Assembly (NCBI GenBank): GCA_964387845.1
Contig: CAYLXA010000001.1
Coordinates: 224,001-288,000, forward strand
Source of the DNA: an uncultured bacterium
GTDB taxonomy: Bacteria; Omnitrophota; Omnitrophia; Omnitrophales; Abzuiibacteriaceae
Length of the DNA: 64,000 nt
Reading direction: 5' to 3'
The position numbers were made by a program, and so were the translations under genes. Below are positions 11,815 to 26,766 of the stretch, piece after piece. The first letter of the stretch is position 1. Every line of letters begins with the position of its first letter. The notes under the pieces were generated by a model. The model did no database searches and had not been told where the DNA came from. It saw only the letters and a program-made list of their open reading frames with translations.

Positions 11815-11819
11815 CCTGT

Positions 11820-12065: not shown

Positions 12066-12083
12066 GCTTGTTCTCCTTTTTCA

Positions 12084-12980
12084 TTAAATCCCGTCCAGCA
12101 AAATCACCTGAATCGGGGTAAACCCGTCAACCGTGACGGATGTCTCGACTTTTACGTTCCGTAAATCCTGCCGGGCCTGGCCCGTTAAATTCTGGGCAAG
12201 GTTCATTCTGAGATTATCTTCCAATGAATAGGGGTCTCTGCTCACACCGCCTGCAAACAGACTCACCCCCGCAAGCGCTGTTTCGCCCACCGCTTTCAGA
12301 ATCCTCATGTCCGTCTGCTTGCTTACGCGCCCTTTGATGCCCGCTGAACCGTCCTCTGAAAGGGCAATCGCTCGAATCCGCCTTTCACTGCCGTCAGGCA
12401 TAATCAAAAGTTCAAAACGTACGTTGATGCGGTTGAGACTTTTTAAGACACCCGCTTCACCTAGAAACTTGGAATCCTTGGGGATAACAACTTTTCCTTC
12501 TGCTTCAAAATCTTTTGTAATAACCGCGGTTACAGGCGCCGCGACATTGAATGAAAAGATCGTATCCTTCACGAAGGCGGGAATCTTCGTGCCGGATGGA
12601 ATATTAAATTTCTGAAGCGTGGTTGATTGCGTGCCGTAAACGCTTTGGCTTCTTTTTTCCTCTTCCTTAAAAAGAAAGACATCGATATCCGTGTTGTAGT
12701 TTCTTGCTTTCCTGACCGGCCTTGCGCCGGAGAGTGCGGATGGTTTACCGTTTGATGCCTTAGGCGGCCCCGCAAAATCCGATTGGCCAAATATCTTCCT
12801 GCCGGCAGTCTCAGAATTCTTCGTGGGTTCCCCCTTATCCGTGCGCCTTTTCTGCTTGGCGCTTTGAGAATAGAAGAGAACAAGAATCATGAGCACAAGC
12901 AGTAAGACCAGCAAGACCCTGTGCTTCTTCGCCGCGCGCAACAATGTTAAGAGAGATGTCGATTTTCTAAATTCAGTCAT
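12084..12980 (-). CDS. trbI: T4SS component TrbI/VirB10
   Basis: N-terminal TM. A Pro-rich linker. The C-terminal domain IPSGTKIPAFVKDTIFSFNVAAPVTAVITKDFEAEGKVVIPKDSKFLGE...IMPDGSERRI matches the TrbI/VirB10 barrel. Confidence 0.8.
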   Translation of the reverse strand: MTEFRKSTSLLTLLRAAKKHRVLLVLLLVLMILVLFYSQSAKQKRRTDKGEPTKNSETAGRKIFGQSDFAGPPKASNGKPSALSGARPVRKARNYNTDIDVFLFKEEEKRSQSVYGTQSTTLQKFNIPSGTKIPAFVKDTIFSFNVAAPVTAVITKDFEAEGKVVIPKDSKFLGEAGVLKSLNRINVRFELLIMPDGSERRIRAIALSEDGSAGIKGRVSKQTDMRILKAVGETALAGVSLFAGGVSRDPYSLEDNLRMNLAQNLTGQARQDLRNVKVETSVTVDGFTPIQVILLDGI

Positions 12981-12990
12981 AATTATTTCC

Positions 12991-14007
12991 TCAATCTAGC
13001 CAGCGAAAGCCTTCGATCCGTAAGTTGCGCTCTCCCTCATCTTCAAACAGGAGGACTACCGGCTTTTCGCCTTTCTTCAAGGATCGTCTGTCAAATTGAA
13101 TGATGCCGTACTGATAAGAATCCGGAGCTACGCTTTTTTCACTCTTAAGATCAGACGGCAGTTCGACCAAGCCTTCTTTGACTTTGCGCAGACCCAAAGA
13201 TTTTTTCTCATAAGTCTGAAGCCCTACGACCATTTCCCTGATTTTGTAATCTGTTTTCGATAAATTACGAATACTGAACCTAAGATACGCTTTCTCGCCA
13301 ATCGTGGAGATGGTTAATAGGTTGAGCCTCACACCGCCCTCCTCTGCGTAATCTTTCAGCTGAACCGCTTCATTTCCTTTTTTGATTTCCTCTTTCAATT
13401 TTTCTTCGGACAAGTCCTCGGCTTTCGCATCAAGCGCTTCTTCCTTCTGTTTAAACTTTTCTTTTATAGCCGTTTCGGTTTCGTTAACCCGCTTTTCAAA
13501 TGCGTTGTCTACGATCATGTCCTCATCCGGATACCTGAAATCAATTACGAAATCAGCTGTTTCGGGTTTCCCGACCGTAACATCAAAAGTAAGCCGCGAG
13601 GATTGCGTCATGATAGTCAGATTTGTCCGCGCATCAGGATCATCCGTGACCGGTTTTATAATGACTTCCTTCTCAAAAACGCCGACTTTGAAGAGTTCCT
13701 GATCTCCGATAAACACCTTGAGCGCGGGCTCTGGCAGATCGATTGTGGAAGCATAACCGAGAGCTGTTTGGAGTTTGTAAACCACGTTCGGCCTCATGCT
13801 TGCGGAGTAAATCCTCTTCTCGCTAACGGAATTCCTATTGATCCGTTTTCTTTCGGCTACAGCGTCCTGCGGCACCTGGTCTGGGTTGGCGACGCTAAGC
13901 TCTGCTTGCTCTACGCTATTTAAATCCTTCCCAAATTCCTCTGCGCAATAGCCATCGTGCGCAAGTGCAATTAAAATTACTGCGATTAAAGTAAAGCATT
14001 TCATCAT
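12991..14007 (-). CDS. trbG: T4SS component TrbG/VirB9
   Basis: Signal peptide. A ~340-aa secretin-like outer-membrane-complex protein. The position between trbF and trbI matches the P-type order. Confidence 0.65.
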   Translation of the reverse strand: MMKCFTLIAVILIALAHDGYCAEEFGKDLNSVEQAELSVANPDQVPQDAVAERKRINRNSVSEKRIYSASMRPNVVYKLQTALGYASTIDLPEPALKVFIGDQELFKVGVFEKEVIIKPVTDDPDARTNLTIMTQSSRLTFDVTVGKPETADFVIDFRYPDEDMIVDNAFEKRVNETETAIKEKFKQKEEALDAKAEDLSEEKLKEEIKKGNEAVQLKDYAEEGGVRLNLLTISTIGEKAYLRFSIRNLSKTDYKIREMVVGLQTYEKKSLGLRKVKEGLVELPSDLKSEKSVAPDSYQYGIIQFDRRSLKKGEKPVVLLFEDEGERNLRIEGFRWLD

Positions 14008-14663
14008 GATTTCTGTTCATCCTTTCTTGACAAATCATTGAGAATCAACTCTTTGTAACCATCCACAAGAAGACCTTCGGGCGTGTTTGAACTTCGGGAG
14101 ACTTTCTTTAAAACGATATCTGCGCGGAATAAGATTTCCTCCCGGAAGGACGGTTCGTCATATCTCGAGATTCGCCTGACACCAAGGAGCGAAACAACCG
14201 CGGCATCGGGTGCATCACGCTCGATTTTCGTTTCTTTAAATTCAAGTTGGGTGTCAATTTGAGCGGTCTTCAGTTTTTCAACCAAGCCCGAATCAATAAG
14301 TGATTTTCTAGCCTCATGTTGAAGCCTCGTGGTCATTAAATTGAAGGCTTCCGCGAGGTCTTTTGTGACTGTGTACGAATTAAAGCCCGTATATCTGAGC
14401 GTAAACCGTTTTGATAGGGCAATGATTTCATGGTGCGTGGGCTCGTTATGTTTTGGCAGGTCTCGAATTACTTGTGCGCCCTCAACTTCTGAAACTCTGA
14501 TGACTACCGGAGGTTTCATGCCTAATATGACGGAACCCGCAAAGGCAAGCAGCACGATGAAGGCAAGTATAAGGTTGGCTTTCCTTAAGAATTGAATTTC
14601 CATTTCGAGGTCGCCAAAAGCTTCAAAGTAGCGGCGTTTGACCTTTGCAATGATTTCGCTCAT
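14004..14663 (-). CDS. trbF: T4SS component TrbF/VirB8
   Basis: Bitopic protein with an N-terminal TM and a periplasmic NTF2-like domain, at the expected position. It shares 4-nt overlaps with its neighbours. Confidence 0.6.
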   Translation of the reverse strand: MSEIIAKVKRRYFEAFGDLEMEIQFLRKANLILAFIVLLAFAGSVILGMKPPVVIRVSEVEGAQVIRDLPKHNEPTHHEIIALSKRFTLRYTGFNSYTVTKDLAEAFNLMTTRLQHEARKSLIDSGLVEKLKTAQIDTQLEFKETKIERDAPDAAVVSLLGVRRISRYDEPSFREEILFRADIVLKKVSRSSNTPEGLLVDGYKELILNDLSRKDEQKS

Positions 14664-15505
14664 GAATTTCCTCCTGAGTAATTCGTCTGCCCTCTGCGGC
14701 TAGGAGTGAACCGGACAGCCGGAATGTGCCGCACGATTCTTTCCATGATTCTTCCGCCGATGCCGAACACTCGTCCGCCCGCCTGCGTGAAACCTTCTGC
14801 GCCCCGGATCATCATCAAAGAAATCATGGGCACAAAGAAAAGTATGATCAAAATGATGATGACGTTCATCGCAAACAAATCAAGATTGAGCGTTTGGGTA
14901 TTGGTGTAAAACTCGAAGAAATTAAGTTCGAAGAGAATACGGACAAAAAGAGACAACACGACGTTCCAATTCAACACTTCAAAGAGCCAGCGTACCCATA
15001 TCCGTGCCATGCCGGGCTGGAAAATACCGACACCCAAGAAGACAGGCCCTGAGATATAAAGCGCTGAAAGGAAAACGATCCTCACCCATCCAAATCCCCG
15101 AAGAATTGCGTAGGATATGTTGTAAGTTCCCTGCATCATCAAATCGAGAAAAGTCATCTTAAGAAGCGCAAGCATTCCCAGGTCATGATTTTGACGATAA
15201 GCCGTGAAAATCTTCTGTATCTGGTCTTTAAATTCTTCAGCCGGCATGAAGAAATTGGCAAGCAAATCCATTCCTCTTGAAACTTCTTCAAAGAAGGGCG
15301 TATAAATTGAATAAAGGCCGGTGATGAGCAGGACTCGGACGAAAAGTCCCGCGTAGTCGCTCCGCCCCTCCATTCCGTGCAAAAATTCTTTAATCAAGGC
15401 GAGTGTTAGAAACACGAAGATAAAACTGTAGCCGACTTCCCGAACCTCATGATAGAAGGCCGCGAAAATAGTGATGATTTCTTGGGTGGTGGGAAGTGAA
15501 CTCAT
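14660..15505 (-). CDS. trbL: T4SS component TrbL/VirB6 (polytopic inner-membrane)
   Basis: 5-6 TM helices, Trp-rich, at the expected position. Confidence 0.6.
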   Translation of the reverse strand: MSSLPTTQEIITIFAAFYHEVREVGYSFIFVFLTLALIKEFLHGMEGRSDYAGLFVRVLLITGLYSIYTPFFEEVSRGMDLLANFFMPAEEFKDQIQKIFTAYRQNHDLGMLALLKMTFLDLMMQGTYNISYAILRGFGWVRIVFLSALYISGPVFLGVGIFQPGMARIWVRWLFEVLNWNVVLSLFVRILFELNFFEFYTNTQTLNLDLFAMNVIIILIILFFVPMISLMMIRGAEGFTQAGGRVFGIGGRIMERIVRHIPAVRFTPSRRGQTNYSGGNS

Positions 15506-16296
15506 CAGCCCGGCCTTCCCAAACTTTCAATACCAAGCTGCATCTCGCGCATATATTTAAGACGCTCCCGCTCGAAGCGCTTTTCATCGCGCGACACTTG
15601 CTCTAATTTGGTTGCTTCAACCTCAAGCAACTTGGCGAATATTTCCTGATTCTCTTGCGTAACGACAATCAATTTTCCGGAGGCATCCGCTGAAAGTCTT
15701 GCCGCCCCTTTTGGACTTGCCGTCTGCGATAATTCTTGAATGGTCTCGCCCGCTTGCTTTGTTTCATCTGAGCGCTTTCTAATTTCATGCGCCATTAAGT
15801 AAGCTTCGCCCACCTGCGATTCATCAAATGTGATATAGGGACGCTCCACAGATTGAGGGTCCATTCCATGAATGGTTTCAATATAGGACTTGATGCCTGA
15901 CGGGTCGCCGTAACCTTCAAGTATGGTCCCCAAATTTCGGATGGCGTCTTGTTCAACGGACGGTTCGAATCCAGCAAGGAATCCATCCCGAAATGTCGAC
16001 TGTGAATCTCTGAAGGCCCGCGCCGCATCCTGGACAAAACTTCTCACGAATTCTTCGATGCCAGCGTTAAAGCGCATCATTTCCTGATACGTGTTTTCAA
16101 GTTCCGTAAGCTGATCGAATAATACGATAATTTCCTGTGCAAACTGATTTTCCATCAAGGAATTGCGAAGTTCATTCAGCGCGGCATTGACAAAATCAAT
16201 CACAGGCAGATCCGCCTTCGCTGTGCCGGGGCAGACGGCTAGGCTTGCTGCTAAGTAAAGCGAGATGACCGTCAACCTTAATTTTGGTGATTTCAT
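15505..16296 (-). CDS. trbJ: T4SS component TrbJ/VirB5-like
   Basis: Signal peptide followed by an all-coiled-coil ~260-aa protein, at the expected position after VirB4. Confidence 0.55.
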   Translation of the reverse strand: MKSPKLRLTVISLYLAASLAVCPGTAKADLPVIDFVNAALNELRNSLMENQFAQEIIVLFDQLTELENTYQEMMRFNAGIEEFVRSFVQDAARAFRDSQSTFRDGFLAGFEPSVEQDAIRNLGTILEGYGDPSGIKSYIETIHGMDPQSVERPYITFDESQVGEAYLMAHEIRKRSDETKQAGETIQELSQTASPKGAARLSADASGKLIVVTQENQEIFAKLLEVEATKLEQVSRDEKRFERERLKYMREMQLGIESLGRPG

Positions 16297-18773
16297 ATGG
16301 CAGGAGCCTCCTTACGCCACGTGATTCCTCGCGGATATTTACCCGCGAGTATTCTCAGCCGTTCCAACTCACTCAAACTTGGCTCCATTGCGCGGAGCCT
16401 TTCCTCCTCGATTTGGTCGTTGGGCTCTGTTGTTGCAATCCAGTAGTCAAGGGGCGAGGGCTCAAGCTTAGCCGTGACAGCTTTGTTAAAAAACTTGATG
16501 AAGATTTCGGAGAAAACACCGGGCCTTATTTCCAATTCTTCGCAAGCGCTGACCTCATTCGGATTCAGGTCAAACTTAGACAGCAATTCATGCCCCTTTT
16601 GAAGCTTTAAAATGTATTTCACGTAGGAATTGGAAAGAATGGCGGGTGCCGCCTTTGATTGAAGAAAATCCACAGGGCTTTGGCTGATTGAAAGAACGAG
16701 ACCGTTTGTCTTTCTGGCTGTTCTGTAAAGCTCTTCAATCAGCTTTGAGCCGACATCGTCATTAAAAAAGCGCCATCCTTCGTCAATGACAATGATTTTG
16801 CGGAGCGAAATGTCACCCAGTTTTCTAGCAATGGCGGATCGGATCACAAAAAAAAGAATGGATTGCAGTTCAGGGTGCTGTGAAAGCTTGCCCAAGTCAA
16901 AAACAATGAATCGGTTATCAAAAGTCAGGCTGCTTTGCCGGTTCAAGAGCCTGCCAAAGCGACCTTCGGTCCACATGCTTAAATTCTTTGAGAATTGATA
17001 CGCTTTCCGCTTGTCCTCGTCATCACCCGCCGCATAATTTCGAAGAATCATTTGCACATCGCCCAAAAGAGGTCGGTGTGTATCCTGAATGCTTTCGTAG
17101 ACTTTCAGAATTGATTGTTCAAGAATTCGAAGCTCTGAACTTTTCACTCTCTCCCTCTCAGAGACCATCTTTTCAAGCAGGGTGCTCAGAAAACCTAAAA
17201 GATCGGCGTTCACTTCGCCGGGCTTTGGGAATAATTGACGTTTCTCAGGAAATAGGTTAAGCGCATATTCTTCCGTGCAGTCGATTTGCAAGTAATGACC
17301 GTCAAATAAACGCGCAAGTTTTTTATAACTGCCGCCCATATCGATTACGATAACGTGATTCCGATCTCCTGCGATGAGAAAACTGCTCAGCAAATGATTC
17401 GCAGTGAATGACTTCCCGGAACCCGTGCTCCCAATCATGACTGCATGCTTCGCCGGAAGCGACGGATCAAAAAGATTAAGCGCAAACCCTTCGTCTTCGT
17501 GAGTTTTGAGCAAAATATCGAAGTCATCCGTTCCCTTCCATTCTTCCCCGAGCGGCAATAGATGGCTCAATGCGCCTGTTAAGACAGGAAACACGGATTG
17601 ATTTTGATCGGCCTGCAGGGGTAAATGTGACAGAAACAACGTGTCATGCTCCAAATGATCGAAGATTCCGACTGAGCCGCCCAGTTTCGGGAAAGCTTTC
17701 AAAACAGCTTCCTTCTTACGAGCAAGCGCCGCTTCGTCCTTTGCCTTAATGAGCACAGAAAGCGAGATATCAAAGACGCTTTCGCCTTGCTCGGCCATTT
17801 GATGAAGAAATGATTCGTATTGGGACGCCTTTTGCCTTGCAAAGTGATCCTCTGAAATCCGGAAGAAGGCGTTTGCGTGCGCGAAATTGGCTCTGATTCG
17901 AAGCTTGCCAATTTCTTTGTCCTGGTCTTTCTTCCTAAGAGTAATCATCCATTCTGAATCATCCGGCATAAGGCGATCAAATGACTTAATCATTTTCAAG
18001 CCGACATGGCCGGGCAGCGTCCTTAAATTAGCAGCCGAATGAAAATAACCGTCCATATAAAGCGAATTTCTGTAAATTTTGGGCGGATGAAGCAAGAGCC
18101 GCGACCTCAGCGTTTCAAACTTGGGATTGGTTAATGGATTCTCCTGAAACGCGTCTTCGTATCGGACAATCTGAGATAGTGAAGGATTAAGTTTCCTGTA
18201 GTACTCGCGGATAACGTCCATTGCGGAAAGTCTCTCGACCGTGACACCCAAGGCCTTCAACGCCGTGATGATCAACGACTCAGCTTGAAGCAGATAAGCC
18301 TTGCCTTCTTCATGATTTGAGCGATGAAATGATCTTGACCGCTTCCGTTTTTTCTCAGGGCTTAAATGGCTTAAAAACAAAAAAATTTCCTTTTTTACCA
18401 AACGCGAATTTGTTAGTACATTTACTTTCTCCCGCACGATCACGTTGACCAATGGGTCTTGGCGTGAGGTGTTCGCTTGACACCTCCCGAGCATCTCATC
18501 GTCGCCCCGGCTTGAGCGTTTAACGAATGACAATAAAATCCCTGAGGGCAGCCGATTCAGCAGTTTCTGAAGTTCATGCATGAACGCGACTATTTCGGCG
18601 TCATCATAAAGAAGGTAATCAACACCTGAAACTTTATAGACAAGCGCCATTCGCCCTGAAACCCCGACGGCTAAGCCATCTTCTTCAACAGCCATGAGAT
18701 CAAGTGCCGGGAAAAATGGAACGCGTTGCAGTGAGTCGCTCAATTCTTTAATCGTCAGCAATGTTTCCATCAA
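16293..18773 (-). CDS. trbE: T4SS ATPase TrbE/VirB4
   Basis: 826 aa. Walker A GSTGSGKSF, and a Walker B/DExx region. This is the CagE/TrbE/VirB4 architecture. Confidence 0.85.
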   Translation of the reverse strand: MMETLLTIKELSDSLQRVPFFPALDLMAVEEDGLAVGVSGRMALVYKVSGVDYLLYDDAEIVAFMHELQKLLNRLPSGILLSFVKRSSRGDDEMLGRCQANTSRQDPLVNVIVREKVNVLTNSRLVKKEIFLFLSHLSPEKKRKRSRSFHRSNHEEGKAYLLQAESLIITALKALGVTVERLSAMDVIREYYRKLNPSLSQIVRYEDAFQENPLTNPKFETLRSRLLLHPPKIYRNSLYMDGYFHSAANLRTLPGHVGLKMIKSFDRLMPDDSEWMITLRKKDQDKEIGKLRIRANFAHANAFFRISEDHFARQKASQYESFLHQMAEQGESVFDISLSVLIKAKDEAALARKKEAVLKAFPKLGGSVGIFDHLEHDTLFLSHLPLQADQNQSVFPVLTGALSHLLPLGEEWKGTDDFDILLKTHEDEGFALNLFDPSLPAKHAVMIGSTGSGKSFTANHLLSSFLIAGDRNHVIVIDMGGSYKKLARLFDGHYLQIDCTEEYALNLFPEKRQLFPKPGEVNADLLGFLSTLLEKMVSERERVKSSELRILEQSILKVYESIQDTHRPLLGDVQMILRNYAAGDDEDKRKAYQFSKNLSMWTEGRFGRLLNRQSSLTFDNRFIVFDLGKLSQHPELQSILFFVIRSAIARKLGDISLRKIIVIDEGWRFFNDDVGSKLIEELYRTARKTNGLVLSISQSPVDFLQSKAAPAILSNSYVKYILKLQKGHELLSKFDLNPNEVSACEELEIRPGVFSEIFIKFFNKAVTAKLEPSPLDYWIATTEPNDQIEEERLRAMEPSLSELERLRILAGKYPRGITWRKEAPAI

Positions 18774-19033
18774 ATTTCCTCCCGTGTCTGTGTGAAATAG
18801 GCGGGCATGAAAAAATAACGAATCAAATTCTTAGTAAACCTGTCTGCCTTATTCCTTTTGTAATATCTGAGAAATAAATAGACCGCGAAGACAAATGAAA
18901 GATTGACCATGAGATTCTTTGAGCCGAGAAAGACCATAAGATAGACCGCTAACAAACCAAGCAAGTCCATCCATTCAAGACCGAAGAATTTGTTTTTTTG
19001 TGTAATCATTGGATACATCGTTATTGGCTTCAT
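18770..19033 (-). CDS. trbD: T4SS component TrbD/VirB3
   Basis: 87-aa two-TM protein immediately upstream of VirB4, with overlapping stop and start. Confidence 0.6.
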   Translation of the reverse strand: MKPITMYPMITQKNKFFGLEWMDLLGLLAVYLMVFLGSKNLMVNLSFVFAVYLFLRYYKRNKADRFTKNLIRYFFMPAYFTQTREEI

Positions 19034-19034
19034 G

Positions 19035-19337
19035 CTAAAACCCCGTCACATTCTTTATTAAGTCAAGCACTGCTCGGGCAAGCATAATGAGCGCTCCGCC
19101 CCCTGCTGCCAGGGCACCGCGCCTCATGCCTTGTTCATTTCCAAGCGCCATTGAAATACCAGATACCGCAATTCCGATCACAAGTATTCCAGGACCTACG
19201 CTCTGTATTAGAAAAGTCCCAACAGCATCCAGGAAATAGCCCAACTCTTCTTGATTCTGCGCCTCCGCATACGCAATGCCCGCGTGAAGATAAATAGCCG
19301 TCAGTATCACAAGATATTTCGCAATCATTTTCCGCAT
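19035..19337 (-). CDS. trbC: T4SS pilin TrbC/VirB2
   Basis: A 100-aa product from MRKMIAKYLVILTAIYLHAGIAYA (signal peptide) with two hydrophobic helices. Consensus RBS AAGGTG. The longer ORF-track start at 19430 runs through a conserved non-coding motif and is rejected. Confidence 0.65.
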   Translation of the reverse strand: MRKMIAKYLVILTAIYLHAGIAYAEAQNQEELGYFLDAVGTFLIQSVGPGILVIGIAVSGISMALGNEQGMRRGALAAGGGALIMLARAVLDLIKNVTGF

Positions 19338-19358
19338 ATATTCACCTTGGGGGATAGC

Positions 19359-19376
19359 GGGGTCAATTTTGACCCC
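19359..19376. promoter_or_regulatory. Perfect palindrome GGGGTCAATTTTGACCCC in the trbC leader. It is either an operator or a 5'-UTR hairpin.
   Basis: 8-bp arms around a TT centre, between the conserved promoter motif and the trbC RBS. Confidence 0.4.
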
Positions 19377-19412
19377 GCCCTTTGGAACAGCCGCATGCGC
19401 TGTAAAAGTCCC

Positions 19413-19462
19413 CTCATAGATGTTGTGCAAAAACGGGCATTTCGTAACAAGAAATTTAAAAT
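19413..19462 (-). promoter_or_regulatory. Conserved ~50-bp promoter/operator element, copy 1 (upstream of the trb operon)
   Basis: ctcatagatgttgtgcaaaaacGGGcatttcgtaacaagaaatttaaaat is about 88% identical to 26639..26688. The second copy is upstream of the traG/relaxase operon. Confidence 0.55.
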
Positions 19463-19468
19463 CCCATC

Positions 19469-19837
19469 TTAAAATTTATTTTTCAGTATCTGGATTCCCA
19501 CATATTTCTTGAGTTTGGTCGCAGCCCTGCGTATATGCATCCGTACGATCGCGCTATCTGAAATATTCAACTCTTCTGCTATTTCCAGATTGCTCAATCC
19601 TTGCAATGTTAATCTGACGCACTCACGCTCTCTCTTAGACAGCCCGGCACGACTTATGGCTCGTCTTGCCATTTCTTTCTGTTCATTTTCAATCAGCACC
19701 TCGACCGGCGAGGGCTGAGTGGCCACCTTCTTCAGAATTTCTTGATGCAAATCGGTTTTTGGGTCATTTTCGATCTTCTGAAAATCGACACCGATACGCA
19801 CCGTTCTCTTTGTTTTCCATTGAGTGTTGTTTTCCAT
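19469..19837 (-). CDS. Small sigma-70 region-4/LuxR-type HTH regulator
   Basis: RERECVRLTLQGLSNLEIAEELNISDSAIVRMHIRRAATKL is a sigma-70 r4 HTH. The gene is immediately upstream of the trb promoter motif. RBS GGAGGTGG. Confidence 0.6.
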   Translation of the reverse strand: MENNTQWKTKRTVRIGVDFQKIENDPKTDLHQEILKKVATQPSPVEVLIENEQKEMARRAISRAGLSKRERECVRLTLQGLSNLEIAEELNISDSAIVRMHIRRAATKLKKYVGIQILKNKF

Positions 19838-19940
19838 TTTCCACCTCCATATGGTGGAAAATGGGCGAATACCTCCTTCTATAACTCTTTAACTAATAAA
19901 TACTTACGATAATTTTATAGGCGAATATACGGATAGACAC

Positions 19941-19991
19941 AAAAAAAGACACCTGTAAGCGGACGAGGGCGGAAGGAATTCCGCCCTCGTT
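19941..19991 (-). terminator. Rho-independent terminator after the 19998..20312 gene
   Basis: 11-bp stem GACGAGGGCGG/CCGCCCTCGTT. On the minus strand it is followed by a T-run (forward aaaaaaag). Confidence 0.55.
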
Positions 19992-19997
19992 TCACAC

Positions 19998-20312
19998 TTA
20001 ATTCCTAATCCTCCGGATTGTTGAGATCCAAGCTTGAAGATCGCGATTCAAGAATCGCAACCGTTCAGCAATGTTTGCCATTGGAGGCTTCTGCTCGATG
20101 ACCTCAATACTCTTTGCGCCTGCCGAATTCGGCTGTCTGGCTTGGAGCCATCCCGCAAACGATTGGGCAAAGAAGCAAATTGCTAAGACCACCGGAGCGA
20201 TGAGAAACATTAAATTGATAAAGGCAGCCAGCATGCACTTCAGCAAGAAAATGGTGAAATTCCGCAGCCTGCCTAATGCCTTTTTTATTTCGGTTAGAAT
20301 GAATTGTTTCAT
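19998..20312 (-). CDS. Small membrane protein of unknown function
   Basis: 104 aa, two hydrophobic helices, followed by a terminator. Confidence 0.4.
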   Translation of the reverse strand: MKQFILTEIKKALGRLRNFTIFLLKCMLAAFINLMFLIAPVVLAICFFAQSFAGWLQARQPNSAGAKSIEVIEQKPPMANIAERLRFLNRDLQAWISTIRRIRN

Positions 20313-20324
20313 TTTGAATTATCC

Positions 20325-21362
20325 TTATACGAGTTGATATTGCCGGTTTTGAATTTCCAAGTTACTTTCCTCCTTTTCGTACTCCGTTAGATAATCAAAG
20401 CTGCAATCTTCACAGAATGAGCCGCCGGTTGCTTCGTCATAAAAGAGTTTGCCGGCTTCCACTTGGTCTTTACACAGTGAACATAGAAGCTTTGATTTTT
20501 CAGTGATGTTTGAATCTTCGAGAAATCCCATATACCGAAGCTCATCAAAGCTGTAGAGATAGGGATTCCCCGGCACTTTGAAGTCATCCTCTGTGAGCGA
20601 CTTGCGCATCGGGTTCTCCATCTCGCAAGGTATTTTTCGCATGGGACATTTTTCAGAAAGTTCTTCAACGTTAATTTTGTAAAGCACGTTGGATTGAATC
20701 TCGAGAAAATTGCCTTTCATGAAGTTTCTTGCAAGAGCGTATTGCAAGTGGATTTTCTCGCTCGACCAAAGCAAGGTTTTGAACTTAGGGACATAAACAG
20801 CGTAAAGCGTCCGTTCAACATTTCGGATGAGATAAAGCGTTTTCCTGTCATCCGTTTGCATGAATGCCAACGCAAAATCCCCAAACATCATCGAAAGCCG
20901 TTCAGCGACTTCTCTGTCGGAGGAGGCGCCATCCAAAACACGGAATACCGCCTCGCTATCGACGTCAGTTTTTTGCTCCGTGTTAAATCGTTTGAGAAGT
21001 TCAGTTCGATTTAGAAAATGCCCATTGTGCACACCGGCAAAATTCTCCGAGACAAACGGATGACAATTCCGGGATGAGATTGCTCCTACTGTGGCAAGCC
21101 GCGTATGGCCCAGAACAATGAGCGTATCCGCACCGATTTTCTTGATGACGTTACGCATCCGGACGGTGCGCAAAAGCTCGCTCGCTGGTCTGGCTTCCTT
21201 GAAAACGGTCATGCTCTCTTCTGCTGCTGTGAGCAATCCAGTTCCGTCTTGACCTCTTGTTTCATTGAGAAAAGCCAAATCCATCACTACGCCTTGAAGC
21301 CTCAGTTTCTCTGCTCCGCTTAAGGGCAGGGCCTCTCTCACAAATCCGAATATTCCACACAT
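20325..21362 (-). CDS. Class-II (Ntn-type) glutamine amidotransferase, YafJ-like, with a C-terminal zinc ribbon
   Basis: MCGIFGF gives the N-terminal nucleophile Cys2. The GATase-II fold continues through ...HTRLATVG...NCHPF. The C-terminus CSLCKD...CEDCS forms a CxxC-Xn-CxxC ribbon. Confidence 0.7.
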   Translation of the reverse strand: MCGIFGFVREALPLSGAEKLRLQGVVMDLAFLNETRGQDGTGLLTAAEESMTVFKEARPASELLRTVRMRNVIKKIGADTLIVLGHTRLATVGAISSRNCHPFVSENFAGVHNGHFLNRTELLKRFNTEQKTDVDSEAVFRVLDGASSDREVAERLSMMFGDFALAFMQTDDRKTLYLIRNVERTLYAVYVPKFKTLLWSSEKIHLQYALARNFMKGNFLEIQSNVLYKINVEELSEKCPMRKIPCEMENPMRKSLTEDDFKVPGNPYLYSFDELRYMGFLEDSNITEKSKLLCSLCKDQVEAGKLFYDEATGGSFCEDCSFDYLTEYEKEESNLEIQNRQYQLV

Positions 21363-21410
21363 GGTAAGTCTCCTTAGGTTTAATTGGGATTGAACTACTG
21401 AAGTGATAAA

Positions 21411-22685
21411 TTACTTTTGAACAGCTGCCAGAGTGGGAGCTGTTTCGAAGAACTTCTCGGGATGAAACTTTAAGATCCTTTGCTCGATGTAATTCCGAAT
21501 CTTCGTCCGGAATTTCAGCAGCACGCAGAATGCCTCAAACTGTTCTTTGAATGAAGCAAACTCCGAAAACCTGAAGTCTCTTTGACGCTTTGACTCGTCT
21601 ACGATCGCTTGGCAGATCACAATGAAATTTGTAATCTTAAGCGGGTTCGTTGTTCCCGAGTGATAGCGAAACTCCACTGAACGCCTGAAGAACCAAGAGT
21701 GAATGTTGACACCGAAGTATCTTGAGTTGTCAAACTTAGACTTCGTATCCACTCGCGCATTCCTTCTGCCGTACCAGAGCCGCTTTAAATCCATCTCATC
21801 TTTGACTTTGAACCGGAACCGTGATTTGGGAAATCGATTGAGCGGCACGGAGTAAGAACCGGAAAACCTTGATTCCGGAAGCATGGCATAAATCACCGGC
21901 TCAAACGCCACCGCAATCTTCAGCAATTTCTTGATGTTCTGAAAATCAAGATCCCGCCCATCAATGTGGACATGAAGACCGCAGCGCTTGTCCACGAAGT
22001 AATTCCAGTCAAGCAGCTTTTGAGTGAAAATGGCGATTTCGTTAAAGCCGTCATCGCCTTGAAGAATCGGGCTCGCAAATTCCATGCCCCAATCTCCCAG
22101 AGAGCCGTCATGCTGTTTGCTCCAAGCGCCCACTTCATCAACCGGAAGATGCATTTCCTCATCCCGAAGTATGGCTTCAATTTCCACGCCGTATTTTCTT
22201 TTTGATTTGCACAGTTTGAATTTAGCCGACGAAAATTCATGGTGCTGAATCAGCTCGCCGTTCTCCACCATGCGGTCGTAACAGTCTTCACAGTAAGTTG
22301 ACTCCCCTCTTCTAAAGCAGCGGGTAGAGTCAACCTCAGAACCGCAATCCTCGCAGAAGATTATGTTTTCAGATTCACAGGCGGAGCAGTAATAGACGTC
22401 CTGCAAATCTGAATAACGAGCGTCCTCTGACGCCGCATATTCCCCGCAGGCATTGCATTCCCTGTAATTGGCGTGAAAGCAGCTTTCACAAAGCCTCAAC
22501 CCTGCAACTGCAAAGGATTCGTCAAGCCACATGGGACGTTCGCATTTCCCGCACGGCTTCACACGTTTTTCAAAACACGCCGGGCAAAGATACCGGTCTT
22601 GATAGGTTTTAAACAAATCGACGTTTACGACAACACTGCAGGACGGGCATTTCTTTTCTTCTGCCCGTATTTCCAAAAGTTCCAT
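21411..22685 (-). CDS. Glutamine-synthetase/GCS2-like carboxylate-amine ligase (amidoligase) with an N-terminal array of four zinc ribbons
   Basis: Eight CxxC pairs lie in the first ~150 aa. They are followed by YGVEIEA, GMEFASP, GLHVHIDG and SVEFRYH, which resemble the E-x-E / H-x-H / EfR motifs of YbdK/GCS2-type ligases. Confidence 0.55.
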   Translation of the reverse strand: MELLEIRAEEKKCPSCSVVVNVDLFKTYQDRYLCPACFEKRVKPCGKCERPMWLDESFAVAGLRLCESCFHANYRECNACGEYAASEDARYSDLQDVYYCSACESENIIFCEDCGSEVDSTRCFRRGESTYCEDCYDRMVENGELIQHHEFSSAKFKLCKSKRKYGVEIEAILRDEEMHLPVDEVGAWSKQHDGSLGDWGMEFASPILQGDDGFNEIAIFTQKLLDWNYFVDKRCGLHVHIDGRDLDFQNIKKLLKIAVAFEPVIYAMLPESRFSGSYSVPLNRFPKSRFRFKVKDEMDLKRLWYGRRNARVDTKSKFDNSRYFGVNIHSWFFRRSVEFRYHSGTTNPLKITNFIVICQAIVDESKRQRDFRFSEFASFKEQFEAFCVLLKFRTKIRNYIEQRILKFHPEKFFETAPTLAAVQK

Positions 22686-22709
22686 GGCTCATCTCCTTTT
22701 CTATTGTTT

Positions 22710-22898
22710 TCAAACTGTCTGGTGATCTTGGCTTTGGTTTTTAACTGACATGCGATCTCTGCGCTTTCGCTCATAGAGACGCTTTAATATCCACAAGGGA
22801 ACGAACGTCCAATACCCTCTTGGCCTTCCTGTCCACTCCGAAAGCTGGTCCGCATAAACTGATTTGTCTTCTGAGTCAAAAATGATGTAGGGATTCAT
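22710..22898 (-). CDS. Small hypothetical protein (62 aa)
   Basis: Good RBS AAGGAG upstream. It lies between the amidoligase and a hairpin. Confidence 0.35.
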   Translation of the reverse strand: MNPYIIFDSEDKSVYADQLSEWTGRPRGYWTFVPLWILKRLYERKRRDRMSVKNQSQDHQTV

Positions 22899-22965
22899 GG
22901 CAAGCTCCTTAAGTGAGAGGGCGGAAACTTTTTATTTCCGCCCTCTTTGTGTGACATGGCTTTGA

Positions 22966-23061
22966 TCAGCGCAGGACAATGGCCCAGCCGAACCGAACAA
23001 AATCTGTAATAAGATCCGGCATCAGCATTGCTTTGGCGCGTGAAACAATCAGCGTCTTCAT
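22966..23061 (-). CDS. Possible 31-aa micro-ORF, MKTLIVSRAKAMLMPDLITDFVRFGWAIVLR
   Basis: Strong RBS AAAGGAGG 7 nt upstream of the ATG. The ORF is flanked by two GC-rich hairpins. Confidence 0.25.
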   Translation of the reverse strand: MKTLIVSRAKAMLMPDLITDFVRFGWAIVLR

Positions 23062-23141
23062 GGAATAAACCTCCTTTGAAAAGACAAAGGGCGAAGAATC
23101 GCTTCTCCGCCCTTTGCTTAATAGTTTGATCGAAGTTCTTA

Positions 23142-23369
23142 CTAGCTGACTTGGACTTGCTGTTCAGCTCTGCGCAAACCTTCAATCAGTTCGCCGATGA
23201 GCGCACAGTTAATTGTGACGCCTTTCTTCGTCGGCCGCGCTTCGCCCGTTACGGCATCAGCGAAAAAGACCCTGACATCAACGTAATCACGGTCTTTGTA
23301 CTTGCCGACTGAGATTTTAACTTCTTCGTTTTCATTACGTTTAAAACTGTAAATTTCCTGCTTTTCCAT
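23142..23369 (-). CDS. PC4-like ssDNA-binding protein (second paralogue)
   Basis: KYKDRDYVDVRVFFADAVTGEARPTKKGVTINCALIGELIEGL is the PC4/YdbC signature. RBS AAAGGAGA. Confidence 0.6.
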   Translation of the reverse strand: MEKQEIYSFKRNENEEVKISVGKYKDRDYVDVRVFFADAVTGEARPTKKGVTINCALIGELIEGLRRAEQQVQVS

Positions 23370-23452
23370 TTGAATTCTCCTTTTTTTGATTTAATGTTGG
23401 TTTATTTGAGCTTTAGTGTTTGGTCTCTTTCGCTTGAACCTCCTTTCTAAGA

Positions 23453-23493
23453 ACAAAAAAGGGGAAGAAGCCTGCTGAACAGACCTCTTCCCC
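23453..23493 (-). terminator. Rho-independent terminator after the coupling-protein gene
   Basis: GGGGAAGAAG...CTCTTCCCC hairpin. On the minus strand it is followed by TTTTTTG. Confidence 0.55.
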
Positions 23494-23536
23494 TCTTTTG
23501 ATTTAATGTTAAATTAGGACTTAATTAGCGATTAAC

Positions 23537-25360
23537 TCATCGTTTGGCTCCTCTTATCTTTTCAAATTTATGCGCAGTATCACTGAGCGTTTGAAACTGA
23601 TCGCTTTCGTCTTGAACGATTTCAGGCTTTGCGCTTTCACGTTTCCAATGCTCTGTTGCCCGCTCACGTTCATCTTTAATCTTCATGTGTATCCATGTTA
23701 AATTAATGTCTGTTTCAGAGGACAGCCGCAGATAATCAATTTTAAAACTTGGATATTTCATGACAACAATCGCTTCGCCGCGTCCAAGTGAACGAACCAA
23801 GTCAGGGTCGATGCGAAACGTCTGCGCTTCTCTGACAGATCCTCGCCCTGTCATGTCTGTGCCGAGCATGCCGGATTCAGTCTGATACGTGGAAACAAAA
23901 GTTCTTCGGGAGCCTCCAATTTTTGAATATTTGTCAATCGAGAATGGGTCATCCTGACGCATGATGATTTTTACGTTTGTGTTCTCGAGGATTTGCTGCT
24001 GAAAGGTCATGCGCTTCGCCGCGAGGTCAGCCAGGCTTTGGTGAAGAAGCGTTACAGCAAGTTTGGCGCCGCGCGCTTTATTCATGAAATCGATGAAGTT
24101 CTCGTAGACAAAGCTTGAAAATTCATCCACGTACACAGGAAAAAAGTGCCGCTCACCCTCTTCCATCTGCGTTTGAATGTAGTTGGAAACTGTTTTAATG
24201 TCCTGCAGGATGAGACGCCCGAATCTTTTCGCCGTTTCTTCGTAGCCCTGCGTATTGAGTGCGAAATAGACAATTTTATTCTTCTGATAAACCTCTAGGA
24301 GGTCAATTTTTGATTCCTGAGAATCCGTCAGTCTTGAAAACTCTGATTTAGTTACGAGGCCTAAATCCGCGATGAATCCAGAGAGAAACTTGGTATTATC
24401 ATGAAACATGTCTTTCATGACTTCCAAGTCCTTCGACATCCGGATATCGTCAAGCTGCGCTATCAGCGCTCGTAATTGATTCTTGTCCGTTAAAAGCTCA
24501 TACAAATCCCGGAACCTGACTTTTCTGTTCAAACTCACCAAAGCTCTGAGCAATGTCAATGCGGCTTCTTCCGCCTTTTTTCTGTAAAATTCCTCGCGCC
24601 ATTCAGTAGAGCCGATCAGTTTGTCCTTAATCTCTGATGCGTTTCCGCGCAAGAGTGGGTTGTATGTGTCCGATATTTCCGGATGTGATAGCGAGAAGAA
24701 TAGAAAGTCATCTTTCCTGCCGTTAATTTGAACAAAGTAACGAATCTTCGCCAATAATTCCAAATCGCCCTTGGCGTCCACGACTATCGCCCCGCGGCCT
24801 CGCTCGATATCCCTTTTAAGCAGCGGAAGCATGACTGATTCTGTTTTACCAACGCCCGTTGAACCTACAACATGCGTATGCATGAGCCTCATGTCATCCG
24901 TTAAGTAACAGCCCTTGCCCGACCAATAACTCGTACCCAGATAAGCTTGATTCGCCTCAACCGCCGTTTTTTGCTTCGTGATTTCTCTCGAAGAAATTCT
25001 CTTCAATCTGCGTTTCTTATCGTCAGAGGATGTATCTTTCGAATTCTTCATTGCATATCCCGTCAACATGAAAAACGGCAATGTAATCAACAAATAGGCG
25101 CTGTAGAGGCACGTAGCCGCGACTCCCGCTTTCGTCCAAGGTCTCGCCTCAAACCTTTCAACAAACCCATTTAAATATTTAATTGACCAAATGGTCGTAA
25201 GCGCTGCAAGCAAGGTGCTCAAATAAGCTATTATCTTGACCCAAGAACTAGATTGATTCTTGACCCATCCGTCAAGCTTCTTGCCCAACCATACCGGAAC
25301 GGATACGAAAAGGAATTCAAACGTTGACCCCGTAAGGCCCTTTGACGGCTTCTCATTCAT
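23537..25360 (-). CDS. traG: Type IV coupling protein (VirD4/TraG family)
   Basis: Two N-terminal TM helices. Walker A VVGSTGVGKTE. A TraG/TrwB-type nucleotide-binding domain of 607 aa. Confidence 0.8.
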   Translation of the reverse strand: MNEKPSKGLTGSTFEFLFVSVPVWLGKKLDGWVKNQSSSWVKIIAYLSTLLAALTTIWSIKYLNGFVERFEARPWTKAGVAATCLYSAYLLITLPFFMLTGYAMKNSKDTSSDDKKRRLKRISSREITKQKTAVEANQAYLGTSYWSGKGCYLTDDMRLMHTHVVGSTGVGKTESVMLPLLKRDIERGRGAIVVDAKGDLELLAKIRYFVQINGRKDDFLFFSLSHPEISDTYNPLLRGNASEIKDKLIGSTEWREEFYRKKAEEAALTLLRALVSLNRKVRFRDLYELLTDKNQLRALIAQLDDIRMSKDLEVMKDMFHDNTKFLSGFIADLGLVTKSEFSRLTDSQESKIDLLEVYQKNKIVYFALNTQGYEETAKRFGRLILQDIKTVSNYIQTQMEEGERHFFPVYVDEFSSFVYENFIDFMNKARGAKLAVTLLHQSLADLAAKRMTFQQQILENTNVKIIMRQDDPFSIDKYSKIGGSRRTFVSTYQTESGMLGTDMTGRGSVREAQTFRIDPDLVRSLGRGEAIVVMKYPSFKIDYLRLSSETDINLTWIHMKIKDERERATEHWKRESAKPEIVQDESDQFQTLSDTAHKFEKIRGAKR

Positions 25361-26088
25361 CCCAAGATGGAGCGTAGAGGAATTCTGGATGCCTTATTCA
25401 TCAGCTCCGCATCTTTCTTTTTCAGTAAGAGCTCATCATAGAGCACAAAGCAAAGCTTATTCTGAGGAACTTCAATGTCCAATAGCCAGCTCTTCACCAT
25501 GTGCCAAGACAGGATATAAATCACCAGGGTGAAATCATTTAGACGGCTGTATTTCGCAAACCTTGTCTCATACCTTTCCCGTTCCCTGAAGGAATTTTCA
25601 AGTTCAATCGCAATTCTCTGCCCGCTTACTTCGATGACCGCGTCAGGAAAAAATTCCCGGTCGTGCTCTTCTTTTCTGACAACCCGTTCGCTCAGCCATT
25701 TAACACCCTTAAAGTCCCGAAACAGGCACCGCAACGTCGCCAACTTGAGCGTATGCTCTATCGTATATTGGTTGATATCCCCGATTTCTCCAAAGCCACG
25801 GTCCAGCCCTTTCTCTTTCAAGACATCTATCCCCTCAGCCGTCAGCAGAAAAAGTCTCACTTTTTCTGATTTCGCCTTCTGGACATCCAAAGTCCTAATA
25901 AATCCTGCATCAACAAGCTTGCTCAAACGCTGCCTTGCAGTTCCTGACCTCACTTCGCTGTCAGGCCAAAATGCCGAGTAAATTTGATTCGCCATCATGT
26001 ACTTTTGTTCATTCAAGTACGTGAATATCTCGATATCACGCTCTGTAATGACGACACGCCGCAATTTATCCAATAAGTTTTCAGCCAC
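25357..26088 (-). CDS. Replication-relaxation (Replic_Relax) family protein, the candidate relaxase/mobilisation protein
   Basis: N-terminal wHTH (IFTYLNEQKYMMANQIYSAF...RLSKLVDAGFI). C-terminal FFPDAVIEV...IAIELENS matches the PDa...lEvD core of the Replic_Relax family. It overlaps traG by 4 nt. Confidence 0.5.
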   Translation of the reverse strand: MAENLLDKLRRVVITERDIEIFTYLNEQKYMMANQIYSAFWPDSEVRSGTARQRLSKLVDAGFIRTLDVQKAKSEKVRLFLLTAEGIDVLKEKGLDRGFGEIGDINQYTIEHTLKLATLRCLFRDFKGVKWLSERVVRKEEHDREFFPDAVIEVSGQRIAIELENSFRERERYETRFAKYSRLNDFTLVIYILSWHMVKSWLLDIEVPQNKLCFVLYDELLLKKKDAELMNKASRIPLRSILG

Positions 26089-26141
26089 AGATTCACTCCC
26101 TCGCCATGGAAAGCCGGTTGGGCCCTTCCATGGCTTGCGAA

Positions 26142-26549
26142 TTACCGAATGGCCAGATCGGCCATTTTCCTCGCTAGATTTCTTGTTTCACTGACCGTAT
26201 TGCCAATGCTCCTTAAGTCATCCCTCAAGTTCAGCTGCCTATCCTTAAACCGATTTGGCGTCTTTGGCGCTTGAACAGGCTTCATCTGATAAACTTTTGG
26301 GGCTACCGTCAAACGAGCCTCCCTTGCCGCTGGTTCAATCTTACTCACACCCGCCTCAGCGTCTTTTGTCCATTGCAATTTCATGACCTGTTTTACGAGA
26401 TAAGCAGGCAGAGTCAGCCCTATTGCCGTTGACCCGATGATCATCCAGCAAGAAATACTGATACTTACAAGCTTAACTCCTAGTTTTCTCAGCTTGAGAT
26501 CCGTACGATCAACCGTTTCACTGACTTGCTTTTCAATTTCTTTCAACAT
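26142..26549 (-). CDS. Hypothetical membrane protein, first gene of the traG operon
   Basis: 135 aa with one TM segment, preceded by the conserved promoter motif. Confidence 0.35.
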   Translation of the reverse strand: MLKEIEKQVSETVDRTDLKLRKLGVKLVSISISCWMIIGSTAIGLTLPAYLVKQVMKLQWTKDAEAGVSKIEPAAREARLTVAPKVYQMKPVQAPKTPNRFKDRQLNLRDDLRSIGNTVSETRNLARKMADLAIR

Positions 26550-26638
26550 TGTGGAACTCCTTATGTGGAAGCTTTATCGCTTCAAGTCTTTCATCCAAGT
26601 TTATGCTTGGCGGTTTCTGTTTATTTTTCGAAATGTTC

Positions 26639-26688: not shown

Positions 26689-26766
26689 TAACAGATGGAA
26701 AATATTTTTTTATGTCTATTAATGAACTCAATTCATTCAACTCACCACTTCCTCACGAGCACCTGT

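Follow-up and report, generated by a model that had tools for sequence, protein, structure and literature searches.

A 64,000-nt stretch of contig CAYLXA010000001.1 (GenBank assembly GCA_964387845.1, positions 224,001 to 288,000; here the window) from an uncultured Omnitrophota bacterium was found to carry two minus-strand operons of conjugative DNA transfer, one encoding a type IV secretion system (T4SS) and the other, the mob operon, a relaxase candidate and a type IV coupling protein (T4CP). The two operons are likely to form the transfer core of an integrative and conjugative element (ICE) of 47.9 kb, which occupies the 3' end of a tRNA-Met gene in a Candidatus Omnitrophota bacterium and combines a relaxase of the MOBC family with a T4SS that lacks VirB11. 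The element, referred to as the island, occupies ~5524-53465 between 42-bp tRNA-Met repeats, and it is probably self-transmissible. Both relaxase and ICE belong to known kinds, and MOBC relaxases have been reported before from conjugative plasmids, among them pAD1, and from ICEs; the searchable literature yielded no account of a comparable ICE from Omnitrophota. The gene map that had been drawn earlier from the letters and open reading frames (ORFs) of the window (the sequence-only reading) was reproduced, with 10 tightly packed minus-strand ORFs across 12084-19430 in the order given there and a mob operon at 26549-23537. Loci brought into the comparison are cited by L numbers.

The probable MOBC relaxase and its operon

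The mob operon (minus strand) comprises genes for a 135-aa protein with a single transmembrane (TM) segment, a 243-aa Replic_Relax protein and a 607-aa VirD4-type T4CP, a composition that had been read correctly at the outset and agrees with coordinates and Pfam matches. The features of the operon and of the spacer upstream of it are:

26747-26886: candidate origin of transfer (oriT), a 140-bp nested inverted repeat found by repeat search, in the 456-bp spacer upstream of the mob operon
26640-26678, minus: 39-nt box upstream of the mob operon, twin of 19413-19451
26142-26549, minus: first mob-operon gene, 135-aa bitopic membrane protein (TM segment 25-45), kept in 7 loci
25357-26088, minus: MOBC (Replic_Relax) relaxase candidate, 243 aa, N-terminal winged helix-turn-helix (wHTH) and C-terminal PD-(D/E)XK nuclease
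23537-25360, minus: VirD4-type coupling protein, 607 aa (Pfam T4SS-DNA_transf and TraG-D_C)
23456-23498, minus: intrinsic terminator closing the mob operon, a 20-pair stem followed by a T run
23142-23369, minus: PC4-like small protein, copy 2 (Pfam PC4, 42.3 bits), found after the T4CP gene also in L001, L004 and L014

The assignment of the 243-aa protein to the Replic_Relax family was upheld by a Pfam match (PF13814) of 30.4 bits, above the gathering score of 25.3, by a match with an E value of 2.2e-15 to the NCBIfam model NF041423 ('MobC family replication-relaxation protein') and by the sequence FFPDA...AIELENS. Across the close family, NF041423 matched 16 of 16 members and PF13814 15 of 16. 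The protein has an N-terminal wHTH and a PD-(D/E)XK restriction-endonuclease fold; a 2025 review describes MOBC relaxases as restriction-endonuclease-like proteins with an N-terminal wHTH, carried by ICEs and by conjugative as well as mobilizable plasmids of Gram-positive and Gram-negative bacteria. Residues E134, D149, E162 and E164 are invariant (16 sequences), and the D149/E162/E164 set fits the DEE metal-binding motif reported for MOBC. The PD...E-x-E motif recurs in MobC of Acinetobacter, in fragments of CloDF13 MobC and in the TraX homolog of the Enterococcus faecalis plasmid pTEF1. Y173, present in 15 of 16 family members, was aligned with Y181 of the latter protein in a weak hhalign match (E 0.037), and Y181 of TraX is reported to be essential for transfer; Y180 is present in all 16. 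BLASTP against the protein of Acinetobacter plasmid pAYTCM-4 that MOB-suite types as MOBC gave 26% identity over 151 aa with the H, PDA and IELE motifs aligned, while a PDB search with the relaxase profile returned only a weak wHTH match.

The absence of an HUH relaxase, also claimed earlier, was borne out, since none was recognised by Pfam among the island ORFs and tblastn with R388 TrwC and F TraI gave no match at E<=1 in the 64-kb window. The accompanying statement that the element contains no MOB-family relaxase and relies on a non-canonical one had to be abandoned, because Replic_Relax (PF13814) is the MOBC family, a recognised non-HUH MOB family. MOBC is one of the six original MOB families, with pAD1 TraX and CloDF13 MobC as prototypes, and CONJscan assigns PF13814 proteins to the MobC superfamily, which is counted among the canonical relaxases (Coluzzi et al. 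2017). The sequence-only reading had named a MOB relaxase on the island as an observation that would speak against it, and formally its own 243-aa candidate is one. That this protein is the only relaxase candidate present stands, and from its family, fold and catalytic residues it is very probably the relaxase of the element.

The relaxase gene and the T4CP gene overlap by 4 nt, and they stay linked in every related locus whose sequence extends into the downstream region. As judged by BLASTP, the T4CP is closest, among the references tested, to the TraW-like protein of pTEF1, a plasmid of the pAD1 type (76.3 and 41.6 bits, against 27.7 bits with R388 TrwB and 20 with F TraD), in agreement with a published association of a VirD4 clade with MOBC. 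The 135-aa membrane protein, for which Pfam gave no family match, is a candidate for a relaxosome accessory protein or membrane tether.

A word-indexed search returned 17 close relatives of the 243-aa protein, and an exhaustive profile search of 1.84 billion cluster representatives returned 14 at E<1e-30, 267 at E<1e-10 and 1416 at E<1e-3. By these counts its group is a small, distinct subfamily within a large superfamily. A search of genome contigs yielded a single related locus, in a Candidatus Omnitrophota metagenome-assembled genome (MAG). Every related contig of sufficient length shows the same layout of small membrane protein, MOBC, T4CP, PC4-like protein, LuxR-type protein, pilin, VirB3 and VirB4, and the arrangement small protein/MobC/T4CP...pilin-VirB3-VirB4 is kept in L002, L003, L004, L008 and L014. 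In L009/L010 (1-10561) the MOBC gene is shortened (186 aa) and the mob region adjoins a defence cluster with a Type ISP restriction enzyme, a PIF1-like helicase and GmrSD, which suggests an element in decay or a hot spot of recombination. The genes upstream of the L003 mob operon were considered as a place for a hidden relaxase and proved to be host lipid-synthesis and protease genes.

Other MOBC systems share parts of this arrangement. In Proteobacteria, the MobC/MobB pair of CloDF13 and MobC of Acinetobacter pAYTCM-4 belong to the same family, and there too the relaxase gene adjoins a T4CP-like gene, but both are small mobilizable plasmids without a T4SS of their own and have the order T4CP then relaxase. 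The mob region of the CloDF13 record (PLSDB NC_002119; L005) is frameshifted, so that MobC is seen only as fragments with PD...FEVERTVK, and no quantitative use was made of it; the mobC/mobB region (6400-7600) lies in short frames, apparently through old sequencing errors, and because it is broken in the record MOB-suite calls this MOBC prototype non-mobilizable. The streptococcal IME_Class_8 (Coluzzi et al. 2017) resembles the island in being integrated and in having a PF13814 relaxase/MobC together with VirD4, but it is mobilizable only, is devoid of a T4SS, uses a serine integrase and occurs in Bacillota.

The candidate origin of transfer

The repeat in the spacer upstream of the mob operon consists of outer arms at 26747-26756 and 26877-26886 (ACTTCCTCAC/GTGAGGAAGT) and of 28-nt inner arms at 26757-26784 and 26830-26857, which flank a 45-nt loop; its asymmetric unpaired segment holds the invariant motifs TCG and TCCCCG. 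A nested repeat occurs at the same place in 6 related loci, in which the outer arm and the unpaired TCG...TCCCCG are conserved in sequence whereas the inner arms differ. Covariation was evaluated in an alignment of the 7 sequences, with slid partners and 500 shuffles as controls. The 36 pairs of the nested repeat were 97.2% paired, compared with 40-49% with slid partners, double substitutions occurred at 17 pairs compared with 3-7 when slid, and 0 of the 500 shuffles reached the observed covariation score. Folded as single-stranded DNA, the window copy had a z value of -7.8. All 13 varying pairs of the inner helix were altered on both sides, with 0 one-sided changes to G-U, an Rfam scan of 26000-27100 gave no credible family, and the repeat is located upstream of the 39-nt box common to both operons; for these reasons we favour a DNA-level palindrome over an RNA structure.

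The oriT2 of pAD1 is reportedly an inverted repeat of ~140 bp that contains the nic site and lies beside short direct repeats. The binding site of TraX is given as five direct repeats 70-120 bp from nic (2025 review). A nested repeat of 142 bp (19498-19639) was found in pTEF1 between the genes for the T4CP and the TraX homolog, with outer arms of 18 nt and inner arms of 25 nt, and five 12-nt direct repeats follow it. The pAD1/pTEF1 systems and the window therefore both have a nested repeat of ~140 bp next to the relaxase gene, and in both the relaxase is a wHTH and PD-(D/E)XK protein of ~245-260 aa with a D...ExE triad; a Tyr of each is paired in the weak hhalign match. They differ in that the clear 12-nt direct-repeat array of pTEF1 is represented in the window by only two loose 15-nt copies, in that the relaxases share ~22% identity (BLASTP E 0.09), and in gene order, which is T4CP-oriT-relaxase in pTEF1 and oriT-small gene-relaxase-T4CP in the window. 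Furthermore, pAD1 is a plasmid with a T4SS of the monoderm type, whereas the window carries an ICE whose T4SS is of the diderm type, as follows from the presence of VirB9 and VirB10. From the kept, covarying repeat beside the mob operon and its likeness to the pTEF1/pAD1 oriT2 repeat, we infer that 26747-26886 is the oriT and that nicking takes place at the 140-bp repeat.

There is a small but real chance that the repeat, instead of being an oriT, acts in transcription, where it might terminate the upstream STAND gene, serve as an operator or form a structured leader RNA. It is situated between two co-directional genes, and covariation alone cannot tell an RNA role from a DNA role. However, the inner helix has changed solely by double Watson-Crick substitutions (13 pairs), which suits a DNA palindrome, the repeat is not followed by a T run and had no Rfam match, and its place upstream of the box shared with the pilin operon makes it likely that the mob transcript does not include it. 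Its size and nesting, in addition, match those of the repeat in the oriT2 region of pTEF1.

It is improbable that the 243-aa protein acts instead as a regulator, as an initiator of replication or simply as a nuclease; in that case the relaxase proper would be an unrecognised protein, for instance the product of an unannotated ORF or the tyrosine recombinase working in the manner of TcpM, or would be provided in trans. The Pfam family name does cover 'replication-relaxation', the score against the curated MobC models is low, several island ORFs belong to no family, and MOBM relaxases are tyrosine recombinases. On the other hand, the catalytic DEE residues and the wHTH are conserved, and the gene is translationally coupled to that of a TraW-like T4CP and stands beside a pAD1-like nested repeat. 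The sole recombinase of the island lies at an attachment (att) end by an Xis-like gene, which is the usual position of an integrase, and the mob operon of L003 adjoins host lipid-synthesis genes with no further DNA-processing gene.

The type IV secretion system and the absence of VirB11

The T4SS operon runs on the minus strand from 19337 to 12084 in the order pilin-VirB3-VirB4-(B5-like)-(B6-like)-VirB8-VirB9-VirB10. Together with the regulatory features upstream of it, its genes are:

19469-19837, minus: LuxR/GerE-type (sigma70 region 4-like) regulator, encoded immediately ahead of the T4SS operon (Pfam GerE, 43.5 bits)
19413-19451, minus: 39-nt box preceding the T4SS operon, with 95% identity to 26640-26678 (intergenic region compared with the window by blastn)
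19035-19337, minus: VirB2/TrbC pilin (Pfam TrbC, 34.7 bits); the mechanical ORF extends to 19430
18770-19033, minus: VirB3/TraL-like small membrane protein (Pfam TraL, 24.1 bits against a gathering score of 24.4)
16293-18773, minus: VirB4-type ATPase (Pfam P-loop_TraG, 112 bits)
15505-16296, minus: VirB5/TrbJ-like secreted coiled-coil protein, 263 aa, by position and topology only, with a signal-peptide-like N-terminus
14660-15505, minus: VirB6-like polytopic membrane protein, 281 aa, by position and topology only, with at least 4 hydrophobic segments
14004-14663, minus: VirB8-family protein, 219 aa, bitopic, assigned transitively through homologs at 45-49% identity that carry PF04335
12991-14007, minus: VirB9/CagX homolog (Pfam CagX, 42.1 bits; TIGR02781 VirB9, 50.6 bits) with a signal peptide
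12084-12980, minus: VirB10/TrbI homolog (Pfam TrbI, 54.2 bits) with an N-terminal TM segment

The array had been described as a Trb operon joined by 4-nt overlaps. Its order was found as described, and four junctions are indeed 4-nt overlaps (at 14004, 14660, 16293 and 18770), but one is a 1-nt overlap (at 15505) and two are gaps of 10 and 1 nt. The labels trbJ, trbL and trbF likewise fit the order, the first two by position and topology only and the third by way of homologs with PF04335. The 219-aa protein at the VirB8 position had no direct profile or PDB sequence match, and BLASTP aligned it with the syntenic protein of Myxococcus plasmid pYRE with an E value of 2.6e-10. The ortholog of the VirB3/TraL-like protein in L004 gave a weak VirB3 match. 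For the pilin, the ATG at 19337 (100 aa) is probably the start rather than the TTG at 19430, because homologs are 100-104 aa long and the 39-nt box overlaps the 5' end of the extended ORF.

The earlier designation of the system as P-type (Trb) was not sustained by the scores of its VirB4, which reached 254.6 bits with the TraC-F-type model (TIGR02746; trusted cutoff 567) against 67 with TrbE. Other models gave 144 (VirB4_CagE), 70 (Bacteroides TraG) and 42 bits (ICE-type PFL_4706), all of these scores being below the curated cutoffs, and further TrbE models gave 25.6 and 16.9 bits. In BLASTP, VirB4 scored 248 bits with the pYRE protein, 83.6 with F TraC and 40.8 with R388 TrwK. The core order virB2-3-4...8-9-10 is that of R388 and of the published core of mating-pair formation (MPF) class MPF_T, and with R388 Trw and Agrobacterium VirB the window shares the full order B2-B3-B4-B5-B6-B8-B9-B10 and a minimal gene set. 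R388, however, has VirB11 (TrwD), VirB1 and a MOBF relaxase, none of which was found in the window, and VirB4 of the window appears to fall outside the VirB4/TrbE group by profile and BLASTP scores. The Tra system of the F plasmid (MPF_F) resembles that of the window in that VirB11 is absent from both, VirB4 scores best on TraC-F and VirB3 matches TraL, but the gene order differs and the F-specific genes TraF/H/N/U/W, TrbC and TraG were matched by no island ORF, be it through the Pfam families TraF, TraH, TraN, TraU, TraW and TrbC or, in the window, by tblastn with F TraG, TraK, TraB and TraE. The T4SS is thus best regarded as a minimal VirB-like system whose lineage is unassigned, not as P-type.

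That a TrbB/VirB11 ATPase is missing was confirmed in three ways. No island ORF of at least 50 aa had a Pfam match to VirB11, tblastn with R388 TrwD gave none at E<=1 in the 64-kb window, and Walker-A motifs in six frames (open frames of at least 60 aa) were confined to VirB4, the T4CP, the STAND NTPase and one out-of-frame site within the integrase gene. VirB11 is needed by most of the Gram-negative T4SSs studied, while F is without it (2025 review), and outside MPF_T it is dispensable or rare; as the T4SS of the window appears to belong to a VirB-like lineage outside that class, the missing ATPase is unremarkable. The VirB11-less layout is also kept in the relatives L014 and L015, and we infer that the T4SS functions without VirB11.

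Among 72,556 PLSDB plasmids, the best match to VirB4 was that of Myxococcus stipitatus pYRE (NZ_CP102771; L011), with 25.7% identity over 98% and 229-248 bits. The two share a syntenic block (in pYRE small-small-VirB4-248-308-236-329 aa) in which the protein at the VirB8 position and the VirB10 C-terminus are homologous, as is the T4CP; pYRE differs in being a Myxococcota plasmid and is typed by MOB-suite as non-mobilizable. Its region 9723-22596 holds a T4CP and a minimal T4SS, no relaxase being recognised there, and its VirB10-like domain forms the C-terminus of an 813-aa protein annotated 'protein kinase'. The 240-aa protein encoded after the pYRE T4CP gene was considered as a MOBC relative, and no relationship was detectable.

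A quite improbable explanation of the missing ATPase is that the island is decayed or helper-dependent, so that without VirB11 its T4SS can neither assemble nor translocate DNA and transfer needs the machinery of a helper. The requirement for VirB11 in most studied Gram-negative T4SSs and a gene order like that of MPF_T (R388), which has VirB11, would be compatible with this. Yet the T4SS genes are without exception intact and closely coupled, VirB4 resembles the F type rather than the T type and VirB11 is rare outside MPF_T, and the VirB11-less layout recurs in L014 and L015 (45-76% protein identity) as well as in pYRE, which speaks for purifying selection on it.

As regards expression, the 39-nt box is likely to be a common promoter or operator of both operons; at the equivalent place before the pilin gene, L014 has a 51-nt match to the box at 90%. 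The LuxR/sigma70-region-4-like protein (19469-19837), whose gene position is also kept in L002, L008, L014 and L015, is the obvious candidate for a regulator acting at this box, and both operons would be regulated by the protein and the box together. Between the box of the mob operon and the 135-aa gene (26560-26630, minus sense), two short palindromes, CCAAGCAnAAACTTGG and GAAGCGAnAAAGCTTC, stand directly before the ribosome-binding site. They are kept in the window, L002, L004, L007, L008 and L009, and may be operator sites or leader hairpins.

Element borders, cargo and place of the system

The borders of the island and the remaining features discussed here are:

53423-53498, minus: tRNA-Met (CAT), identified by ARAGORN; its 3' 42 nt (53424-53465) form the second att repeat
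20325-21362 and 21411-22685, minus: class-II glutamine amidotransferase and Amidoligase_2 pair (Pfam), between the two transfer operons
11820-12065, minus: PC4-like small protein, copy 1 (Pfam PC4, 21.4 bits, below the gathering score of 25)
7330-11814, minus: four-gene envelope module (Pfam), with NTP_transferase (7330-8076), HlyD-like membrane fusion protein (8076-9023), family 2 glycosyltransferase (9020-10570) and TolC-like outer membrane efflux protein (10567-11814)
7132-7329, minus: 65-aa HTH_17 protein (Pfam HTH_17, 32.1 bits), excisionase (Xis) or regulator candidate
5648-6877, minus: tyrosine integrase (Pfam Phage_integrase, 97.8 bits, and SAM-like N-terminal domains)
5524-5565: distal att repeat, 42 bp, an exact copy of the 3' part of tRNA-Met that marks one island end

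The 34-nt core of the att repeat occurs exactly twice in the window, where 0 occurrences are expected by chance (pattern search). The integrase and HTH_17 genes sit just inside the distal repeat, and it is from the adjacency of the two genes that an Xis or regulator role is proposed for the 65-aa protein. The element thus has an integrase and flanking direct repeats at a tRNA gene as well as its own relaxase, T4CP and VirB4-containing T4SS. Housekeeping genes lie outside the repeats (BacA, HemN, MsrA, enolase and DivIC). The host was placed in Omnitrophota by the flanking enolase, whose best named matches are nearly all from Candidatus Omnitrophica/Omnitrophota MAGs, at 73-77% identity, and relatives likewise derive from Omnitrophota MAGs. 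A contig identical to that of the window is present in the metagenome SRR15237813.

A T4SS that serves not conjugation but the delivery of effectors, the release of DNA or attachment between cells in a host-associated Omnitrophota lifestyle, with relaxase and T4CP as relics, is very improbable, for although the cargo includes a 2070-aa RHS/Tc-toxin-like protein and other surface proteins and an envelope polysaccharide-like module is linked to the T4SS, the ICE set is complete (att repeats, integrase, T4CP, relaxase and oriT-like repeat) and relaxase, T4CP and repeat are kept across divergent relatives.

Several observations weigh against the island being a self-transmissible ICE with a MOBC relaxase. 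The 243-aa protein scores 56.6 bits with NF041423, far under the naming cutoff of 200, and is distant from the characterised MOBC proteins, as the 26% identity to Acinetobacter MobC and the E value of 0.037 for the pTEF1 TraX homolog indicate. No covalent DNA intermediate has been observed for MOBC (2025 review), and without one the piloting step is unclear even for the prototypes. In the T4SS, no VirB1 and no VirB7 were identified, and the VirB5-like and VirB6-like proteins had no family-profile or PDB sequence match. The inverted repeat could have some other DNA-level role. Lastly, a sigma-70 promoter scan found no promoter, and predicted promoters and terminators were not enriched over shuffles, only the terminator at 23498-23456 standing out.

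Taking the island as a MOBC-driven ICE, the following course of transfer can be proposed. The tyrosine integrase would excise the element, probably with the help of the HTH_17 protein. The MOBC relaxase would bind by its winged helix, and its metal-dependent PD-(D/E)XK site (E134/D149/E162/E164) would nick one strand in or beside the 140-bp repeat. The co-translated TraW-like VirD4 T4CP would then pass the strand to the eight-gene, VirB-like, envelope-spanning T4SS, for which VirB4 would be the sole power source, as in F-type and most non-MPF_T systems. The LuxR-type regulator and the 39-nt box of both operons probably co-ordinate expression.

Small proteins of the PC4/Whirly-like type are encoded after each of the two transfer operons and recur in L001, L004, L008, L014 and L015; the position of copy 1 is occupied by a PC4-like gene in L015 and by an unannotated 81-aa ORF in L014. 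These two proteins could be the single-stranded DNA-binding proteins of the element, replacing a classical SSB. Copy 1 opens a module that follows virB10 in three related elements (window 7330-12065, minus; L014 12597-17341; L015 12730-18085) and consists of the PC4-like protein, the TolC-like efflux protein, a 516-aa family 2 glycosyltransferase, the HlyD-like membrane fusion protein and an NDP-sugar pyrophosphorylase. The HlyD-like protein was found by tblastn as a stop-free translation with 65% identity to the L014 protein. The module resembles a synthase-dependent unit for exopolysaccharide export and seems to move together with the T4SS, possibly for mating aggregation.

Besides the transfer genes, the island carries a STAND NTPase, a giant RHS/Tc-toxin-like protein, Ig-like and FG-GAP proteins and several two-component genes. 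A 1304-aa DUF4062 and STAND-type NTPase (27005-30919, minus) is encoded directly upstream of the candidate oriT, where the GC content is low (38%), and may be cargo with a role in defence or signalling. A Tc-toxin/RHS-type ICE cargo is found at 33980-41705 (minus), where transcription passes first through the gene for a 503-aa Ig-like/glucodextranase-B protein (40194-41705) and then through that for a 2070-aa protein with SpvB, TcdB_toxin_midN, FG-GAP and RHS repeats. The Amidoligase_2 and class-II glutamine amidotransferase pair is also kept in L014 (1911-4284). PADLOC gave no match for the STAND NTPase, for this pair or for two further ORFs without a family.

A more far-reaching interpretation, which we regard as tentative, is that of an undescribed lineage of Omnitrophota conjugative elements, in which a pAD1-type module is joined to a diderm VirB11-less T4SS that forms a ninth MPF group with Myxococcus pYRE, the nic site lying in TCG...TCCCCG. 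The pAD1-type module would then, at the same doubtful level, be made up of the MOBC relaxase, the TraW-like T4CP and the 140-bp nested-repeat oriT. Conceivably the T4SS is an MPF group not yet classified and worth a formal description. If the lineage interpretation is correct, the island would provide a compact and phylogenetically distant system for the question of how MOBC relaxases transfer DNA when no covalent intermediate can be detected.

Of the relaxase families, MOBC is the least understood, and only TraX and CloDF13 MobC have been studied within it. A MOBC module of relaxase, TraW-like T4CP and ~140-bp nested repeat in a diderm uncultured phylum suggests that this oriT architecture is old and conserved in the family, and the invariant bases in an otherwise covarying repeat give concrete predictions of the nic site. 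What raises the finding slightly above routine is the combination of a divergent lineage from an uncultured phylum, a clear covarying oriT-like repeat of pAD1 shape and the under-calling of such elements by typing tools. Standard typing may miss these systems, as seen from pYRE, typed as non-mobilizable, and from the relaxase described here, which falls under the NCBIfam cutoff; for this reason, conjugative capacity in Omnitrophota and similar lineages is probably under-counted.

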